Assembly (NCBI GenBank): GCA_964361095.1
Contig: CAYHZA010000001.1
Location: forward strand, 1,456 to 65,455
Length of the DNA: 64,000 nucleotides
Reading direction: 5' to 3'
Source: an uncultured Candidatus Saccharibacteria bacterium
GTDB lineage: Bacteria > Patescibacteriota > Minisyncoccia > UBA6257 > 2-01-FULL-56-20
The position numbers and the translations under genes are program-made. This document shows, piece by piece, positions 1 through 53,814 of the stretch. The notes under the pieces were generated by a model. The model had not been told where the DNA came from and did no database searches. It worked only from the letters and a program-made list of their open reading frames with translations. Each line of letters opens with the position of its first letter. Within the stretch, counting starts at the first letter, position 1.

Positions 1-141
1 AAATCTCGAAAGCCATTCGAGCTTGTATACTACGAAGCGTATAAGTCAGAAAGTGATGCTAGAAAAAGAGAGGCCAGCTTAAAGTTGCGAAGTCGAGCAT
101 TCGCACAATTGAAGAAACGTATAACCGACAGCACCAAGTAA
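1..141 (+). CDS. GIY-YIG nuclease (YhbQ/UPF0213-like), C-terminal fragment; 5' end lies beyond the window edge
   Basis: Frame 1 translates to KSRKPFELVYYEAYKSESDARKREASLKLRSRAFAQLKKR... This aligns with the C-terminus of the complete GIY-YIG ORF at 30512-30772 (RRPFELVYYEAYRAEDDARTREHNLKLRSNALNQLKRRLKK). Stop TAA at 139-141. Confidence 0.55.
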   Translation, partial: KSRKPFELVYYEAYKSESDARKREASLKLRSRAFAQLKKRITDSTK

Positions 142-154
142 TTTGGTGTGGGGG
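142..154. repeat. Right terminal inverted repeat TTTGGTGTGGGGG of the GIY-YIG mini-element family
   Basis: Immediately follows the GIY-YIG stop codon. Same arm as 222-236, 8486-8498 and 30765-30782. Confidence 0.6.
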
Positions 155-161
155 TAAACTT

Positions 162-389
162 ATGTCAAAGGAAATCGCCACTAAAACTGAGAAAGAAATT
201 CACCCCCACACCAAAGGGATTTTTGGTGTGGGGGTGTGCATCAAGTGCAAGAAGTGTGGCACTAAGGTTCTTTCTATTACGCGCGGTAGTTTAACCCCAT
301 GTAAGTGTGGGGCTATTTCTGTCGATGGCTCTAAAGAGTTAGTGAGAGTTATCGGTAAGCCAGAGGATTATGAAGAAATCCACAAATAA
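162..389 (+). CDS. Small zinc-ribbon protein (CxxCxxC...CxC) carrying an in-frame 36-bp palindromic insertion
   Basis: 75-aa ORF with Cys pairs CIKCKKCG...PCKCG. Codons 14-25 (HPHTKGIFGVGV) are encoded by the palindrome at 201-236. No clear RBS. Confidence 0.35.
   Translation: MSKEIATKTEKEIHPHTKGIFGVGVCIKCKKCGTKVLSITRGSLTPCKCGAISVDGSKELVRVIGKPEDYEEIHK
201..236. repeat. Solo (empty) hairpin copy of the CCCCCACACC element: cacccccacaccaaa-gggatt-tttggtgtgggggtg
   Basis: Perfect 15-bp inverted repeat with a 6-nt loop. Length 36 is a multiple of 3 and sits inside ORF 162-389. Confidence 0.7.
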
Positions 390-8468: not shown

Positions 8469-8499
8469 ACCCCCACACCAAAAACTTTGGTGTGGGGGT
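8469..8499. repeat. Solo hairpin copy of the CCCCCACACC element: acccccacaccaaa-aac-tttggtgtgggggt
   Basis: Perfect 13-14-bp inverted repeat with a 3-nt loop in an intergenic region. Confidence 0.7.
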
Positions 8500-29621: not shown

Positions 29622-30482
29622 ATGGAGGGTTTGCACGATAAAAAATTAAAATTCTTAGAGGAGATGTCGAATGTCTTGCGTCAAGACGTGATAAAAACAC
29701 TCGTCGAGGCGGGGAGCGGACACTCGGCGGGTCCCTTGGGTATGGCGGACATCTTTACGACGCTTTATTTCCATATTTTAAATCACGATCCGAAGAAACC
29801 GGAGTGGCCGGATCGGGATCGCGTGGTTCTCTCGAATGGGCATATTTGCCCGATTTTATACGTTACGCTTGCCCACGCTGGCTATTTCAAGCTCGAAGAG
29901 TTAAAGACGCTCCGTAAGCTCAATTCTCGTCTCCAGGGCCATCCGCACCGTAAATCATTGCCGGGAGTTGAAACCACGTCCGGCCCTTTGGGTTCGGGGA
30001 TTTCGCAGGCGATCGGTATCGCGCTCGCGGCAAAGCTTGACGGCAAGCGGTATCGCACCTATTGTCTGACGTCCGACGGCGAACACGAGGAGGGAAATAC
30101 ATGGGAGGCGATAATGTTTGCGGGAAAAAACAGATTAAGCAATCTTACGGTTGTCGTGGATCGCAATAACATTCAAATCGACGGTTTTACCGAAACGATA
30201 ATGCCCCTTGAGCCGTTTGCCGAAAAGTACAAATCTTTCAACTGGTATGTGATTGAAGTGAACGGCCACAGCCATCAGGATTTTGTGGATGCTGTTGCCG
30301 AAGCGCACGCGATTCATGAACGCCCGACGGTAATTATCGCGCATACGATTCCCGGAAAAGGGGTGAGTTTTATGGAAGATGACTTTCGCTGGCATGGTAA
30401 ACCACCAAACAAAGAAGAAGCTAATAAGGCATTAAAAGAGCTAAGAACTTTAGGTGATCGCATCGCCAGCGAACATCAATAA
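29622..30482 (+). CDS. tkt: Transketolase, N-terminal (TPP-binding) subunit; its last ~25 codons are supplied by the inserted element
   Basis: GHSAGPLGMADI, LSNGH, GPLGSGISQAIGIALA, TSDGEHEEG. The 3' end (30393-30482) has AT-rich, recoded codon usage. Confidence 0.85.
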   Translation: MEGLHDKKLKFLEEMSNVLRQDVIKTLVEAGSGHSAGPLGMADIFTTLYFHILNHDPKKPEWPDRDRVVLSNGHICPILYVTLAHAGYFKLEELKTLRKLNSRLQGHPHRKSLPGVETTSGPLGSGISQAIGIALAAKLDGKRYRTYCLTSDGEHEEGNTWEAIMFAGKNRLSNLTVVVDRNNIQIDGFTETIMPLEPFAEKYKSFNWYVIEVNGHSHQDFVDAVAEAHAIHERPTVIIAHTIPGKGVSFMEDDFRWHGKPPNKEEANKALKELRTLGDRIASEHQ

Positions 30483-30782
30483 GTGGCACGCCCCCACACC
30501 TAACGAGTTTTATGTTCTACATCTATATGTTAAAGAGCAAAAAGGATAATATGTTATATGTAGGTTCTACTGGTGATCTACGAGAAAGGTTTGCTTTGCA
30601 TAATGCAGGGAAAATAGTTTCTACCAAAGGTCGCCGCCCGTTTGAACTGGTTTATTATGAAGCTTATCGCGCCGAGGATGATGCCCGTACACGCGAGCAT
30701 AACCTAAAGCTTCGTTCTAATGCCCTAAACCAGTTGAAACGCAGATTGAAGAAAAGTCTCGAAACTCGTTAGGTGTGGGGGC
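30393..30782 (+). mobile_element. GIY-YIG mini-element: recoded transketolase 3' end, 18-bp terminal inverted repeats (gcccccacacctaacgag / ctcgttaggtgtgggggc) and the GIY-YIG gene
   Basis: Inverted repeats lie at 30490-30507 and 30765-30782. Upstream of the left repeat is a synonymous, AT-rich recoding of the host gene end. Host sequence resumes at 30783. Confidence 0.7.
30512..30772 (+). CDS. GIY-YIG nuclease (YhbQ/UPF0213-like, 86 aa)
   Basis: MLYVGSTGDLRERFALHN (GIY...YIG...R...H). The stop codon lies inside the right inverted repeat. Confidence 0.8.
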   Translation: MFYIYMLKSKKDNMLYVGSTGDLRERFALHNAGKIVSTKGRRPFELVYYEAYRAEDDARTREHNLKLRSNALNQLKRRLKKSLETR

Positions 30783-30871
30783 ACGGGAAACCGCCGAAGC
30801 CGGACGAAGCACGGATTGCACTTAAGGAACTGCGGACATTAGGGGAGAGGATAAAGAGCGAACACCAATAA
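30783..30871 (+). pseudogene. Displaced original 3' end of the transketolase N-subunit gene (HGKPPKPDEARIALKELRTLGERIKSEHQ*)
   Basis: GC-rich host-like codons. Translation parallels ...HGKPPNKEEANKALKELRTLGDRIASEHQ* at the end of the intact ORF. Confidence 0.65.
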
Positions 30872-30875
30872 AGAT

Positions 30876-31541
30876 ATGAAAACAGAAAAAACCAACTACA
30901 TCATTCTTCTTATACTCGTCTTAGTGACGGCGATTGGCGTTGCGGCATACATAACACAAGCACGGAGGATATATAAACTTCCGGATGCAAGCCAGTTATC
31001 TATCGCCCACCGTGGCAACGGCACCAGTATTGATGTTAGCACTTGGAAAACGTATCGGAATGAGCAGTATGGGTTTGAGTTCAGATATCCAGATGGATTG
31101 CAGATTGAGGAGTATAAAAATGGGTTTGAATATAGTGTTTACGCAATATGGTTTAAAAACATAAATGTACGGATTGGAGTTTCAAATGCTGCCTCGCGAG
31201 AAAGTTATAATACTCGATGCGAGAGCGACGACACGGGAATGTGCATTGGATTTGAGTTTCTTAGATGCGAAAGTCAGCAGGATGTTTTGTGCAGTGAGTA
31301 TTCCTATGTACCCATTGGAGGGTTTTGGCAAAAGAAGGCCTCTATCTACAATCAGGATCAATCATTGCGAGGAGAATTTGAAGTTGACTTTAGTTTTGAT
31401 GGTCGAGTTATATCGCCAGCCGTTGTTCTAACCGACGAGATAGTCTTTGATTCAGTAGCTAGCGGTCAAATTGATAAACGCAATGAAAAAAACTTGAGAA
31501 TTTTTGAAGAGATTCTTTCCACTTTCAAATTCATAAGATAA
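30876..31541 (+). CDS. Hypothetical protein with N-terminal TM anchor
   Basis: 221 aa. Its stop overlaps the start of tktC (TAATG). Confidence 0.4.
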   Translation: MKTEKTNYIILLILVLVTAIGVAAYITQARRIYKLPDASQLSIAHRGNGTSIDVSTWKTYRNEQYGFEFRYPDGLQIEEYKNGFEYSVYAIWFKNINVRIGVSNAASRESYNTRCESDDTGMCIGFEFLRCESQQDVLCSEYSYVPIGGFWQKKASIYNQDQSLRGEFEVDFSFDGRVISPAVVLTDEIVFDSVASGQIDKRNEKNLRIFEEILSTFKFIR

Positions 31542-32533
31542 TGTTGAACCCTGATCTAAAATTATCCGAAAAAATCTTCGAGTCCGATATCGAACAAAAG
31601 CCGACCCGTGATGGGTATGGCGATGGATTAGTGATCGCGGGTGAAAAAAACAAAAATGTCGTGGTGCTCTGCGCGGACTTGACCGAATCCACGCGTTCCG
31701 AGGGGTTTGCGAAGAAATTCCCGGACCGGTTTTTTGAGGTGGGCGTGGCGGAACAAAATATGGCGACGATCGCTGCGGGCTTGGGCATCTCGGGCAAAAT
31801 TCCTTTTATTTCTTCCTACGCCACCTTTTCTCCGGGCAGAAATTGGGAGCAGATCCGCACGACGATTTCCTATAACGACTCGAATGTAAAAATCGCGGGG
31901 CACCATTCGGGAATTTCGGTGGGTCCCGATGGCGCGACGCACCAAGCAATAGAAGATATCGCGACCATGCGCGTGATGGCGAATATGAAGGTATGGGTGC
32001 CGTGTGATGCGATAGAGGCAAAAAAGGCGACCATTGCCGCCACAAAAATTTGGGGGCCGATCTATATCCGCTTCGCGCGCGAGAAGACGCCGATTATGAC
32101 GACGGAGAAAACTCCTTATGTGCCGGGTAAAGCCGAAATTTTTTGGATGCCCAAAGGCAGAGCGCAAGCAGTCATAATCGGCTGCGGTCCGCTTCTTTAT
32201 AACGCGCTTCTTGCCGCGCGGGATTTGGAAAAAGTTAAGATTAACGTTATTGTTTTGAATTCACACACCATAAAACCATTGGATGAGCATAAAATTATCG
32301 AACTCGCCAAAAAAACCGGCGCGGTGGTGACGGTCGAGGAGCATCAAATTGCGGGCGGTTTGGGCGGTGCCGTCGCGGAAGTATTGGCGAAACACGCGCC
32401 CACGCCCATGGAATTTATCGGTATGCAGGGAGTTTTTGGAGAATCCGGCGCGCCGAACGAATTAATAGAAAAATACGGGATGGGAGTGAAGAGCATCAAG
32501 TTCGCGGTGAAGAGGGTTCTGAGGAGGAAGTAA
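31541..32533 (+). CDS. tkt: Transketolase, C-terminal (pyrimidine-binding) subunit
   Basis: FFEVGVAEQNM, GHHSGISVGPDGATHQ and the C-terminal domain. Confidence 0.85.
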   Translation: MLNPDLKLSEKIFESDIEQKPTRDGYGDGLVIAGEKNKNVVVLCADLTESTRSEGFAKKFPDRFFEVGVAEQNMATIAAGLGISGKIPFISSYATFSPGRNWEQIRTTISYNDSNVKIAGHHSGISVGPDGATHQAIEDIATMRVMANMKVWVPCDAIEAKKATIAATKIWGPIYIRFAREKTPIMTTEKTPYVPGKAEIFWMPKGRAQAVIIGCGPLLYNALLAARDLEKVKINVIVLNSHTIKPLDEHKIIELAKKTGAVVTVEEHQIAGGLGGAVAEVLAKHAPTPMEFIGMQGVFGESGAPNELIEKYGMGVKSIKFAVKRVLRRK

Positions 32534-53676: not shown

Positions 53677-53814
53677 CCCCCACACCTAAATGAAATAATT
53701 ATCATCTCGAAGTTCTTGCTTCATCCCGCATCTTAAGAAGTTCGGAAGAACATAGACCTAATCTCAAGGCGGAAAGAGCGTGGTGAGCTTCGCAATTTCA
53801 TTTAGGTGTGGGGG
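53677..53814. mobile_element. MITE-like miniature copy of the CCCCCACACC element: perfect 19-bp terminal inverted repeats (cccccacacctaaatgaaa / tttcatttaggtgtggggg) around ~100 bp with no ORF
   Basis: The inverted repeats match the transketolase-associated GIY-YIG element subtype (cctaa). The interior carries its own small inverted repeat. Confidence 0.7.

Follow-up and report, generated by a model that had tools for sequence, protein, structure and literature searches.

A 389-bp GIY-YIG cassette carrying a replacement gene end, probably of homing type, in a Patescibacteria transketolase gene

In the stretch of DNA analysed here (the window, 64,000 nt), the gene for the transketolase N-terminal subunit, tktN, carries 389 bp of inserted DNA and its 3' end is present twice. 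We consider it probable that the locus is a homing-type selfish cassette, a bacterial counterpart of the endonuclease ORFs of fungal mitochondria, with nuclease activity and target being inferred. Such a cassette would have invaded a Patescibacteria (CPR) tktN at invariant Trp-His-Gly codons, its parts being a foreign gene end of 29 codons and a stop, an 8-nt relic of the target, and an inverted-repeat core encoding only an 86-aa GIY-YIG protein. Because the foreign tail is in frame, tktN stays full length, and the displaced native tail would remain downstream as dead sequence. The nuclease is presumed to cut cassette-free tktN at or near TGG CAC GG, after which repair would copy the cassette-bearing allele, with co-conversion of the cassette and of upstream tktN sequence of variable length, an outcome that is seen in two related contigs (L179 and L151, below). 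Products with the replacement tail would keep the transketolase working, and the host would therefore tolerate them. The use of CAT for CAC in the foreign tail removes the CACG of the insertion point, and the occupied allele may thus be shielded from re-cutting. The nuclease gene has no obvious promoter and lies co-directionally just 3' of the tktN stop, where expression by read-through seems probable.

The two ends of tktN and the inserted element

The features of the locus are collected in Table 1. All of those described in the initial annotation were found where it had placed them, except that the GC-rich copy of the gene end, which does finish at 30871, begins one base before the 30783 given there.

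Table 1. Features of the tktN locus (positions within the window)
Feature	Position	Strand	Description
tktN ORF as now read	29622..30482	+	Transketolase N-terminal subunit; 286 aa; Pfam Transketolase_N, E 3.4e-62
Tail 1	30390..30482	+	Trp codon, 29 codons and TAA stop; foreign AT-rich replacement 3' end, in frame with tktN
Spacer GTGGCACG	30483..30490		8 nt; left copy of native target, TGG CAC G (Trp-His-Gly)
Left terminal inverted repeat GCCCCCACACCTAACGAGTTT	30490..30510	+	One base 5' of the GIY-YIG start codon
GIY-YIG nuclease gene	30512..30772	+	Encodes an 86-aa protein of UPF0213 type that consists of the catalytic domain alone
Right terminal inverted repeat AAACTCGTTAGGTGTGGGGGC	30762..30782	-	Overlaps the last GIY-YIG codons and stop
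Tail 2	30782..30871	+	Native tktN 3' end, His to TAA stop; out-of-context remnant
ORF, 221 aa	30876..31541	+	Resident gene of the clade between tktN and tktC, outside the cassette
tktC	31541..32533	+	Transketolase C-terminal subunit (context); Pfam Transket_pyr, Transketolase_C

As now read, tktN is made up of a native body to about position 30392 and a foreign tail, and most of its homologues have a length of 286-287 aa. Without its Trp codon, tail 1 (30393-30482) encodes HGKPPNKEEANKALKELRTLGDRIASEHQ and a stop, and tail 2 encodes HGKPPKPDEARIALKELRTLGERIKSEHQ and a stop. The two align without gaps, with 22 of 29 residues and the stop identical, and they share 58 of 90 nucleotides (64%). In a translated comparison of the two flanks the local score was 106, against a median of 28, a 99th percentile of 43 and a maximum of 54 for 300 mismatched flank pairs, and the similarity of the tails that the initial annotation had left to a formal alignment is therefore significant. 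Its description of tail 1 as a synonymous but diverged copy of the last ~25 codons can be kept as to divergence (over 29 codons) and not as to synonymy, given that 7 of the 29 residues differ. The contrast that it drew between an AT-rich end of tktN and a GC-rich, host-like copy downstream is borne out by GC3 values of 0.23 for tail 1 and 0.57 for tail 2, compared with 0.576 for the body of tktN; the GIY-YIG gene has 0.39.

Tail 2 is native and tail 1 foreign, as the closest tktN relatives match tail 2 and not tail 1. The tails of three relatives whose tktN is 80-82% identical (P0122-P0124) agree with tail 2 at 25-28 of 30 positions (28 in P0123), and with tail 1 at only 21-23. The reconstructed native tail has 72-78% nucleotide identity to L090 and L091, level with the gene body, whereas tail 1 taken alone has 53-62%; tail 2 has 76-80% to the tails of L090 and L091, and the best nucleotide match of tail 1 is the tail of L092, at 77%. 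These comparisons identify tail 1 as a foreign, working tail and tail 2 as the native remnant, and tail 1 resembles the gene end of a different tktN lineage. An in situ tandem duplication of the last 30 codons, followed by divergence and a chance insertion of the element in the spare copy, would explain why the tails are direct repeats of equal length, both terminated by a stop. We regard it as very improbable, since the functional copy would be the divergent one (GC3 0.23), the copy without function shows no greater distance from relatives than the remainder of tktN, tail 1 is nearer to the L092 tail (77%) than to tail 2 (66%), and the tails of L151 show the same pattern.

The spacer GTGGCACG sits between the stop of tail 1 and the left repeat, and a 4-bp direct repeat, CACG, flanks the repeat-bounded core at 30487-30490 and 30782-30785, the right copy being the first four bases of tail 2. 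Excising 30390-30483 together with 30491-30785 recreates ...CGC TGG CAC GGG AAA CCG... and an intact tktN of 286 aa; the empty junction of this reconstructed allele reads CGCTGGCACGGGAAACC. In the native tail the site is GACTTTCGCTGGCACGGGAAACCGCCGAAG. The corresponding site at tail 1 is CGCTGGCATGGTAAACCACCAAAC, where the His codon is CAT and the CACG target is consequently absent. The arms of the inverted repeat are 21 nt long and 100% complementary, and shuffled sequence gave 0 such matches.

The protein encoded in the core matched PF01541 with an E-value of 1.9e-16 and 60.6 bits (cut-off 22.6) over residues 1-73, which, with the perfect repeat arms, agrees with the repeat-flanked GIY-YIG gene of the initial annotation. 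It also matched PDB entry 1ZG2 (BH0048, UPF0213) with E 4.6e-6, and 1YWL with E 0.29. The criterion for a small GIY-YIG protein of the UPF0213 / COG2827 group (BH0048 and YhbQ type; a single domain of ~85-110 aa) is met. Residues Y5, Y16, G18, R26, H30 and E50 were invariant in an alignment of 20 diverse relatives (A1), and by analogy with I-TevI and UvrC we presume that they have catalytic roles. With TIGR01453, the group I intron endonuclease model of I-TevI type, the protein reached 23.1 bits where the cut-off is 56, and over residues 4-63 only.

Several known classes of element were considered and set aside. A classical GIY-YIG homing endonuclease would have a C-terminal DNA-binding domain, and this protein stops after the catalytic domain. 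The features of a group I or group II intron or of an intein are lacking: the host frame stops before the element, and no Rfam family was found in 30200-31000 even at E-values up to 1. A recombinase-type integrative element (e14/icd type) is not supported by an insert of 389 bp whose sole family-matched ORF is the GIY-YIG gene. Terminal inverted repeats with a target-site duplication satisfy the criterion for an insertion sequence or MITE; transposases of the known classes (DDE, HUH, serine, tyrosine) are absent, the GIY-YIG gene being the only gene. The promoter and terminator scan near the element gave nothing beyond the shuffled background. A phage vehicle is unsupported, no relatives having turned up in the collection of viral contigs.

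The initial annotation had also counted the 221-aa ORF downstream among the DNA by which the insertion splits tktN from tktC. This does not hold, because its homologues (WKTYRNEQYGFEF...ILSTFKF) separate tktN from tktC in relatives that have no element. With blastp E-values of 1e-8 to 4e-11, they were detected in that position in L090, and in two copies each in L091 and L092. The ORF has a weak, sub-threshold match to Pfam PsbP_2.

Recurrence, co-conversion and empty sites

The same arrangement, 99.95-100% identical, was found in contigs from three separate samples or assemblies: L001 (Logan ERR3858114), L002 (ENA ERZ1292641) and L003 (Logan SRR32696705), of which the first two derive from Hainich H51 groundwater. 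An assembly artefact, such as a chimeric contig of two strains, is conceivable for metagenomic data and for an element that is repeated within genomes. The identical structure in three assemblies from different samples, and an analogous one in an unrelated 72-kb JGI contig, leave it practically no room, and the misassembly that the initial annotation had named as a possible refutation is not what we see.

That JGI contig, L151, comes from a different metagenome and has the same architecture in a tktN that is only 64% identical to that of the window. Its order is tail 1, TAA-T-TGGCACG, CCCCCACAC, a GIY-YIG gene (73% identical), GTGTGGGGG, and CACGGA running on into tail 2. The junction common to both loci is CATCAATAA-N-TGGCACG-CCCCCACAC, and the L151 spacer is TTGGCACG, as in the window. 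Both copies of tail 1 end in IASEHQ and the stop. Among the tktN relatives of L151, 90 of 95 have tails nearer to its tail 2 than to its tail 1. The tail 1 copies of the window and of L151 agree at 19 of 30 positions (counted by eye) and are no more alike than the two native tails; from the sequences, their common descent is visible only in the part close to the stop and in the junction.

A third host, L179, shares with L151 a block of 408 nt that is 100% identical and includes the 3' part of tktN, the tail and the start of the element. It begins 381 nt upstream of the TAA of tail 1, with the breakpoint at position 1772 of L179, and ends at the end of the L179 contig, inside the element. The 5' parts of the two tktN genes are only 61-75% identical, and the upstream genes differ. 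The GC3 of the block (0.48) is that of L151 (0.48) and unlike that of the 5' part of L179 (0.57). On this evidence we identify the block as a co-conversion tract, belonging to a sister cassette and not to the window copy. The proposal in the initial annotation that the element restores tktN and leaves the original end as a remnant agrees with the tails of the relatives and with both of these contigs.

An alternative with two events should also be weighed. The GIY-YIG element would have transposed into the native tail, duplicating CACG and truncating the gene, and foreign tktN DNA would then have rescued it, by homology at one end and by microhomology (TGG) at the other, so that the tail would not be cargo. 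The core alone is indeed transposon-like, with its terminal inverted repeats and the enrichment of 4-bp direct repeats in its relatives, it occurs at many unrelated loci without a tail, and the native TGGCACG directly adjoins the left repeat. We nevertheless think this sequence of events unlikely for the present loci. L151 has both the stop-N-TGGCACG-repeat junction and the boundaries in common with the window despite the distance between the two tktN genes, the foreign DNA would have had to begin exactly at the first codon of the retained native tail twice independently, and the L179 block shows tail 1, junction and element start travelling as one identical unit. Two such events may have been the origin of the very first composite.

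Relatives with other arrangements were also found, among them, in species other than that of the window, element-free alleles of the kind that the initial annotation had suggested looking for. L091 has an empty site with the native tail intact. In L092, tktN has an AT-rich tail resembling tail 1 (GC3 0.27 versus 0.58 for the body) and no element, and an earlier invasion may have left this tail as its scar. In L180 and L181, whose tktN genes have an 'IASEH' tail, the tail is host-like and an element is lacking. L090 carries a related element (70% identical) directly behind the stop codon, without a duplication, and its tktN keeps an intact TGGCACGG beside this element and has not been invaded. 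Either specificity varies among relatives or the cut lies elsewhere.

This uninvaded site is one of the points against homing. Another is that none of the closest relatives of the GIY-YIG protein (P0002, P0004 and P0006, 73-74% identical) adjoins tktN, and a third is the rarity of tail duplication, described below. The homing interpretation is further limited by the absence of any biochemical evidence for nuclease activity or for recognition of the tktN site, and of a DNA-binding domain such as the characterised GIY-YIG homing enzymes have.

The wider element family

The element belongs to a family of UPF0213-type GIY-YIG genes bounded by CCCCCACACC...GGTGTGGGGG repeats, which is large in Patescibacteria. 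Inverted repeats of at least 11 nt flank 128 of 161 sampled relatives, and 106 of these 128 have a CCCxCAC-like motif. Of 100 elements, 21 have a 4-bp direct repeat on either side of the core (2.35 expected) and 10 have one of 7 bp (0.25 expected). Within the window, the motif GGTGTGGGGG has 9 copies where 0.05 would be expected, and a copy of the hairpin without a gene, with TTTA repeats, lies at 8469-8499. Family elements have short flanking direct repeats and often regenerate the 5' ends of tRNA genes, and their insertions in tRNA genes sit at the same nucleotide.

In L149 and L112, related elements are surrounded by duplicated C-terminal tails, here of restriction-modification-type genes. 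With the window and L151, these are the only clear tail duplications among 155 elements for which both flanks are available (~3%), and tail duplication cannot be regarded as general in the family. Two other candidates were discarded: L145 has probably two neighbouring paralogues, and the NrdD tail of L004 is a split gene.

The cassette may instead spread passively, by DNA uptake and homologous recombination, the GIY-YIG protein not being the mobiliser and the repeat serving some other purpose as a hairpin in RNA or DNA, for example as a processing or termination signal. A bare catalytic domain from the uncharacterised UPF0213 family, without a target-recognition domain, would be in keeping with this, as would the tolerance of an intact candidate target site in L090. 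Passive spread appears improbable to us, because the GIY-YIG motif residues are invariant in the family alignment, the gene is enclosed by repeats whose termini are conserved across phyla, the flanking direct repeats occur far above chance, tRNA genes are entered at a single nucleotide position, and the 408-nt conversion tract is sharp and ends within the element.

It is quite possible, and we propose it tentatively, that the UPF0213-type genes bounded by these repeats are an unrecognised class of bacterial mobile element that heals its targets. If so, the class would have many members in Patescibacteria and extend to other phyla, with a bare GIY-YIG catalytic domain as its sole mobility protein. 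Its elements would land directly behind stop codons; in tRNA genes the terminal repeat would regenerate the first four nucleotides; and landings in coding regions would bring a foreign gene end, as in tktN and the restriction-modification genes. UPF0213, a widespread family of unknown function, would thereby gain its first biological role. A testable role is suggested for the UPF0213-like GIY-YIG family and for the conserved hairpin repeat scattered in these genomes. The core metabolic genes concerned become chimeric, with foreign tails and, once, ~290 nt of upstream coding sequence co-converted too; such mosaicism can mislead phylogenies of Patescibacteria and estimates of horizontal transfer. 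A GIY-YIG nuclease this small, if site-specific for a defined target, would also be of practical interest.

Comparison with known systems

The free-standing GIY-YIG and HNH homing genes of T4-like phages (seg, mob) are examples of intronless homing, in which genomes lacking the nuclease are cut and repair co-converts the flanks. As at tktN, the nuclease gene lies beside a conserved gene and not in an intron, and differences at the cut site protect the carrier. The phage enzymes differ in having DNA-binding domains, and their genes sit between other genes or split a gene into two working pieces, without a duplicate gene end and without terminal inverted repeats. A substitute 3' gene end is brought by integrase-type elements, for example e14 and phage 21 in the icd gene of E. 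coli and the islands in tRNA and tmRNA genes. There too a diverged 3' copy keeps the target working and the original end is found at the far junction. These elements have tyrosine or serine recombinases and att sites and are kilobases long, whereas the tktN insert has 389 bp and no recombinase.

In the literature we found no description, for bacterial chromosomes, of such cassettes or of a repeat-bounded GIY-YIG family; our coverage was incomplete, and this absence is no proof. Another related case is that of the CPR rRNA genes, which, according to the parts of the source available to us, have GIY-YIG-encoding insertions that are not introns, unlike group I and group II introns (PMC11270868). 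They are found in the same bacterial group and encode the same protein superfamily as the tktN element, and from what is accessible of that account they may belong to the same family. Terminal repeats, target duplication and replacement gene ends are not described in the available portion (PMC11270868).

The closest counterparts are mitochondrial. The initial annotation had set a nuclease-type element with a replacement gene end apart from the tRNA-targeting islands; such an element is not without precedent, since mobile endonuclease ORFs (mORFs) of fungal mitochondria do likewise (PMC3630166). Those with a foreign C-terminus are known from atp6, atp9, cox2 and nad3 of Glomus sp., atp9 of Rhizopus and cox2 of Mortierella (PMC3630166), and judging from the citation there of a 1994 study, the atp6 gene of Allomyces macrogynus is a case of the same kind. 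Their spread is attributed to the cutting of ORF-less alleles followed by repair (PMC3630166). As in tktN, an endonuclease ORF (LAGLIDADG, or GIY-YIG in Glomus atp9) lies in the 3' part of an essential gene, with an in-frame foreign C-terminus before it and a native C-terminal remnant after it (PMC3630166). The two copies in Glomus atp6 are ~63% identical in nucleotides, compared with 64% at tktN, and the native copy clusters with relatives while the inserted one stands apart (PMC3630166), as it does in the window and in L151. Horizontal spread in which flanking host sequence is co-converted is shown for L179 and L151, and not for the window copy.

The tktN element differs from the fungal mORFs in several respects. 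It is found on a bacterial (CPR) chromosome and in a gene of cytosolic metabolism, and its nuclease is an 86-aa catalytic domain of UPF0213 type without a DNA-binding part. The nuclease gene is placed, transposon-like, inside conserved terminal inverted repeats and short direct repeats, and the replacement tail ends at a stop of its own, separate from the nuclease ORF. The tktN locus shows that the spare-gene-end strategy of endonuclease ORFs, known in fungal mitochondria, also operates in bacterial chromosomes, here in the reduced genomes of the CPR and with a cassette of less than 400 bp whose nuclease has no more than 86 residues.

Two transketolase tails around a nuclease gene

The region reads as the initial annotation described it: tktN, the gene for the N-terminal transketolase subunit, is followed by a GIY-YIG ORF enclosed in a perfect inverted repeat, with no comparable match in shuffled sequence, and then by a second tktN tail (see table). 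A gap-free, codon-by-codon alignment of the two tails shows 22 identical residues out of 29, an identical stop and 58/90 identical nucleotides. Their translated flank-versus-flank score was 106; mismatched flank pairs drawn from 155 related loci had a median score of 28, and none exceeded 54. The downstream tail has a third-position GC content (GC3) of 0.57, close to that of the tktN body (0.576); in the upstream tail it is 0.23. An assembly artefact was ruled out because contigs of three different samples/assemblies share this structure at 99.95-100% identity. The finding is real and the core of the original interpretation correct.

In the three closest tktN proteins (P0122-P0124, 80-82% identical), 25-28 of the 30 tail positions agree with the downstream tail and 21-23 with the upstream one. 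Once its downstream tail is put back, tktN has 72-78% nucleotide identity over the tail region to the related contigs L090 and L091, equal to the body; the actual upstream tail, taken alone, reaches 53-62%. The upstream tail is nearest to that of L092, a contig of another lineage (77%), and just 66% identical to its downstream partner. As far as sequence comparison goes, these protein and nucleotide data show that the downstream copy is the host's own tail, and that the working tail came from elsewhere. A replacement tail had been proposed to be a synonymous recoding brought in by the element; a foreign tail does replace the native end, but 7 of 29 residues differ, and it is the tail of a foreign allele.

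The upstream stop is separated from the left repeat by 8 nt, GTGGCACG. The core, from C-run to G-run, occupies 30491-30781 and has CACG on either side (30487-30490 and 30782-30785). In-silico removal of 30390-30483 (upstream tail, stop and one G) and 30491-30785 (core and one CACG), 389 nt in total, restores ...TTT CGC TGG CAC GGG AAA CCG... and a continuous 286-aa tktN. The native Trp-His-Gly codons are therefore split by the core, with the foreign tail directly upstream of them, and this demonstrates that the cassette (upstream tail, spacer and core) is an insertion into the native tktN tail. The His codon of the foreign tail is CAT instead of CAC, whereby the CACG tetranucleotide is lost.

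The 86-aa protein consists of a UPF0213-type catalytic domain and nothing more; its nearest solved structure is 1ZG2 (BH0048, E 4.6e-6), and the GIY-YIG motif residues are invariant over 20 diverse relatives. It lacks a DNA-binding domain, and its score for the group I intron endonuclease family is below threshold. An intron was rejected, since no Rfam family matches the region. The viral contigs searched yielded no relatives.

Features of the tktN locus, of other repeat structures in the window and of compared loci
Feature	Position	Details
tktN	29622-30482	286 aa; Pfam Transketolase_N E 3.4e-62; ends ...RWHGKPPNKEEANKALKELRTLGDRIASEHQ*
GIY-YIG ORF	30512-30772	86 aa; GIY-YIG catalytic domain, E 1.9e-16
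Perfect inverted repeat, 21 nt	30490-30510 and 30762-30782	GCCCCCACACCTAACGAGTTT; encloses GIY-YIG ORF
Downstream tail	30782-30871	encodes HGKPPKPDEARIALKELRTLGERIKSEHQ*
ORF family between tktN and tktC	window 30876-31541; L090 1987-2625; L091 3361-4610; L092 3224-5362	
Second GIY-YIG gene, 3' part	window 1-155	66% identical over residues 39-82; runs off window start
Gene-less hairpin	window 203-234	CCCCCACACC-N12-GGTGTGGGGG; in frame within 75-aa Cys-rich ORF (162-389), encoding ...HPHTKGIFGVGV...
Solo hairpin, 31 nt	window 8469-8499	ACCCCCACACCAAAAACTTTGGTGTGGGGGT; intergenic; TTTA on either side, TNNA-type as in full elements
Inverted repeats, 20 nt	window 53677-53814	CCCCCACACCTAAATGAAAT / ATTTCATTTAGGTGTGGGGG; enclose 98 nt
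L149 tail duplication	about 1900-2350	DNA methyltransferase or restriction-type gene, NPPY motif; ...IVYKLYSITEEERKIIE... vs ...IVYKLYGITEEERKIIE...
L112 tail duplication	about 1230-1650	gene ending ...VYWAVCELVANRLQKAKSL* vs YWSVCELVKNRLDKARSV*
GCCCCTCAC-repeat subfamily	L057, L059, L067, L076, L081, L087, L089, L144, L159, L167	at tRNA-Ala/tRNA-Val 5' ends

The cassette in other hosts and its absence in relatives

The top GIY-YIG match among the metagenome matches listed (73% identical) lies on L151, a 72-kb JGI contig, in a tktN only 64% identical to that of the window. The layout there is the same: its left part reads ...TGG CAT GGG ... ATT GCC AGC GAG CAT CAA TAA T TGGCACG CCCCCACACTT ATG, where the nuclease begins, and its right part, after the nuclease, TAAGTGTGGGGG CAC GGA ATT CCG ... 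GAA TAA. Both loci have the junction CATCAATAA-N-TGGCACG-CCCCCACAC and an upstream tail ending IASEHQ*, showing that cassette and junction recur in distant hosts. In the L151 clade, 90 of 95 relatives have tails that resemble the downstream copy more closely than the upstream copy, so the downstream tail is native here too.

L179, a contig from another sample, encodes a tktN protein 85% identical to that of L151 and has a 408-nt block in common with it at 100% identity, beginning 381 nt 5' of the upstream tail's stop (TAA) and extending into the element up to the L179 contig end. The 5' 520 nt of the two tktN genes are only 61-75% identical, the upstream neighbour genes differ, and GC3 in the block (0.48) equals that of L151 (0.48), unlike the L179 5' part (0.57). 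These observations identify a recombination tract and show, by sequence alone, that the cassette travelled between diverged hosts together with about 290 nt of the coding sequence upstream of it. Homing with co-conversion classically leaves such a tract.

The ORF at 30876-31541 had been taken to split tktN from tktC, the C-terminal subunit gene, together with the element. This was not borne out: every relative compared has one or two genes of its family (WKTYRNEQYGFEF...ILSTFKF) between tktN and tktC, and the ORF is therefore resident, not cargo. These low-GC genes encode small proteins of unknown function with a hydrophobic N-terminal segment and conserved WKTYRNEQYGFEF.YP and ILSTFKF(T/I)(K/R) around a very variable middle; toxin-antitoxin genes sometimes lie alongside the one or two copies in the gap.

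L091 (tktN 80% identical) has an empty site, with the tktN stop overlapping the beginning of the following gene. In L090 (tktN 82% identical) a related element, with a nuclease 70% identical and the repeat ACCCCCACACCTAATGAGTTT, is inserted exactly behind the stop of a tktN that has its native tail and no tail duplication. L092-L094 have an AT-rich tktN tail like the window's upstream one (GC3 0.27 versus 0.58 in the body), the gene's last 90 nt (L092 3088-3178; also L093, L094) being 77% identical to the foreign tail, with neither nuclease gene nor remnant behind it. These tails may be scars of a past invasion from which the element was then lost.

The repeat-bounded GIY-YIG family

Profile-guided scans of genome and metagenome collections gave at least about 600 relatives each, and the best 80 loci of each were examined; the following counts refer to these loci. 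Inverted repeats of at least 11 nt flank 128 of the 161 elements having both sides, with the left arm just ahead of the nuclease gene's start codon and the right one at its stop, and 106 of the 128 contain a CCCxCAC-like motif, typically (A/G)CCCCCACACC or GCCCCTCAC. Direct repeats surround the core in 100 distinct elements more often than expected: 4-bp TNNA or CNNG in 21 (2.35 expected) and 7-bp in 10 (0.25 expected). The repeat-bounded core is thereby shown to belong to a family with insertion signatures. Most hosts belong to Patescibacteria; Omnitrophota, Elusimicrobia and others make up the remainder. In 68 of 88 elements the closest gene upstream has the same orientation as the element, and in 13 of them its stop lies at most 3 nt from the left repeat.

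All 7-bp cases are at tRNA gene 5' ends, mostly of tRNA-Ala and tRNA-Val. According to ARAGORN, the tRNA begins 4 nt within the right repeat arm, so the first tRNA bases are supplied by the element's own end. In the GCCCCTCAC subfamily the 7-bp repeat (e.g. CCCGTAG) plus GGGG on the left flank is a kept copy of the original tRNA start. It appears that such an element regenerates the tRNA 5' end, and it may use the tRNA promoter. Within tRNA gene arrays, L087 (2501-3255) and L078 (2501-3202) each contain a pair of GIY-YIG genes separated by a few hundred bases, indicating that elements accumulate in tRNA clusters.

Duplicated C-terminal tails also flank related elements in two restriction-modification-type genes, on L149 and L112. 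As at tktN, 8-9 nt of native target sequence separate the new stop from the left repeat in L149; in L112 AT-richness is confined to the distal part of the new tail, which suggests a crossover within the tail. Separately, the anaerobic ribonucleotide reductase gene nrdD is apparently split in L004 (1-2054; also L005): the long ORF stops before the glycyl-radical region, and the C-terminal RVVGY glycyl-radical segment is found in a separate 52-aa ORF, located 145 nt downstream beyond a highly AT-rich spacer.

A second, partial nuclease copy (1-141) lies at the start of the window, its right repeat TTGGTGTGGGGGT occupying 143-155; the 64-kb stretch therefore has at least two nuclease-bearing copies. 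In addition, three repeat pairs in the window enclose no nuclease gene. The hairpin at 8469-8499 looks like a miniature, internally deleted derivative. The 98 nt inside the 53677-53814 repeats have no detectable similarity to the nuclease gene, and this pair is another non-autonomous relative. For the hairpin at 203-234, the sole homologous locus (L029) ends too early to tell whether it was inserted into coding sequence.

Inferred mechanism and known systems

We infer that the GIY-YIG protein would break cassette-free alleles near TGG CAC GG and that repair from an occupied allele would copy the cassette, while the CAT codon and other differences in the upstream tail would shield occupied alleles. 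The nuclease gene would presumably be expressed by read-through from tktN. Caution against a simple target model comes from L090, where an intact TGGCACGG coexists with the related element.

Integrase elements such as e14 in icd replace the 3' end of a gene, and phage seg and mob genes practise intronless homing; the tktN cassette is functionally like both. In CPR rRNA genes, non-intron insertions encoding GIY-YIG proteins have been reported, without the features of the tktN cassette in the portion of that paper available (PMC11270868). Our literature search, which was of partial coverage, found neither such a cassette nor this repeat-bounded family described in bacterial chromosomes. The family merits study as possibly a new class of self-healing mobile elements; members appear to rebuild tRNA 5' ends with their own repeat, and they tend to lie immediately 3' of stop codons. 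The closest precedent is that of the mobile endonuclease ORFs of fungal mitochondria, which bring along a foreign C-terminus while the native C*-terminus stays downstream, as in Glomus atp6, atp9 (a GIY-YIG case), cox2 and nad3, Rhizopus atp9 and Mortierella cox2 (PMC3630166). The duplicated ends of Glomus atp6 are 63.5% identical in nucleotides (PMC3630166), and the same paper cites an endonuclease ORF of this kind in Allomyces atp6. The tktN cassette is a bacterial, miniature, repeat-bounded version of this mitochondrial 'endonuclease ORF with a carried C-terminus'.
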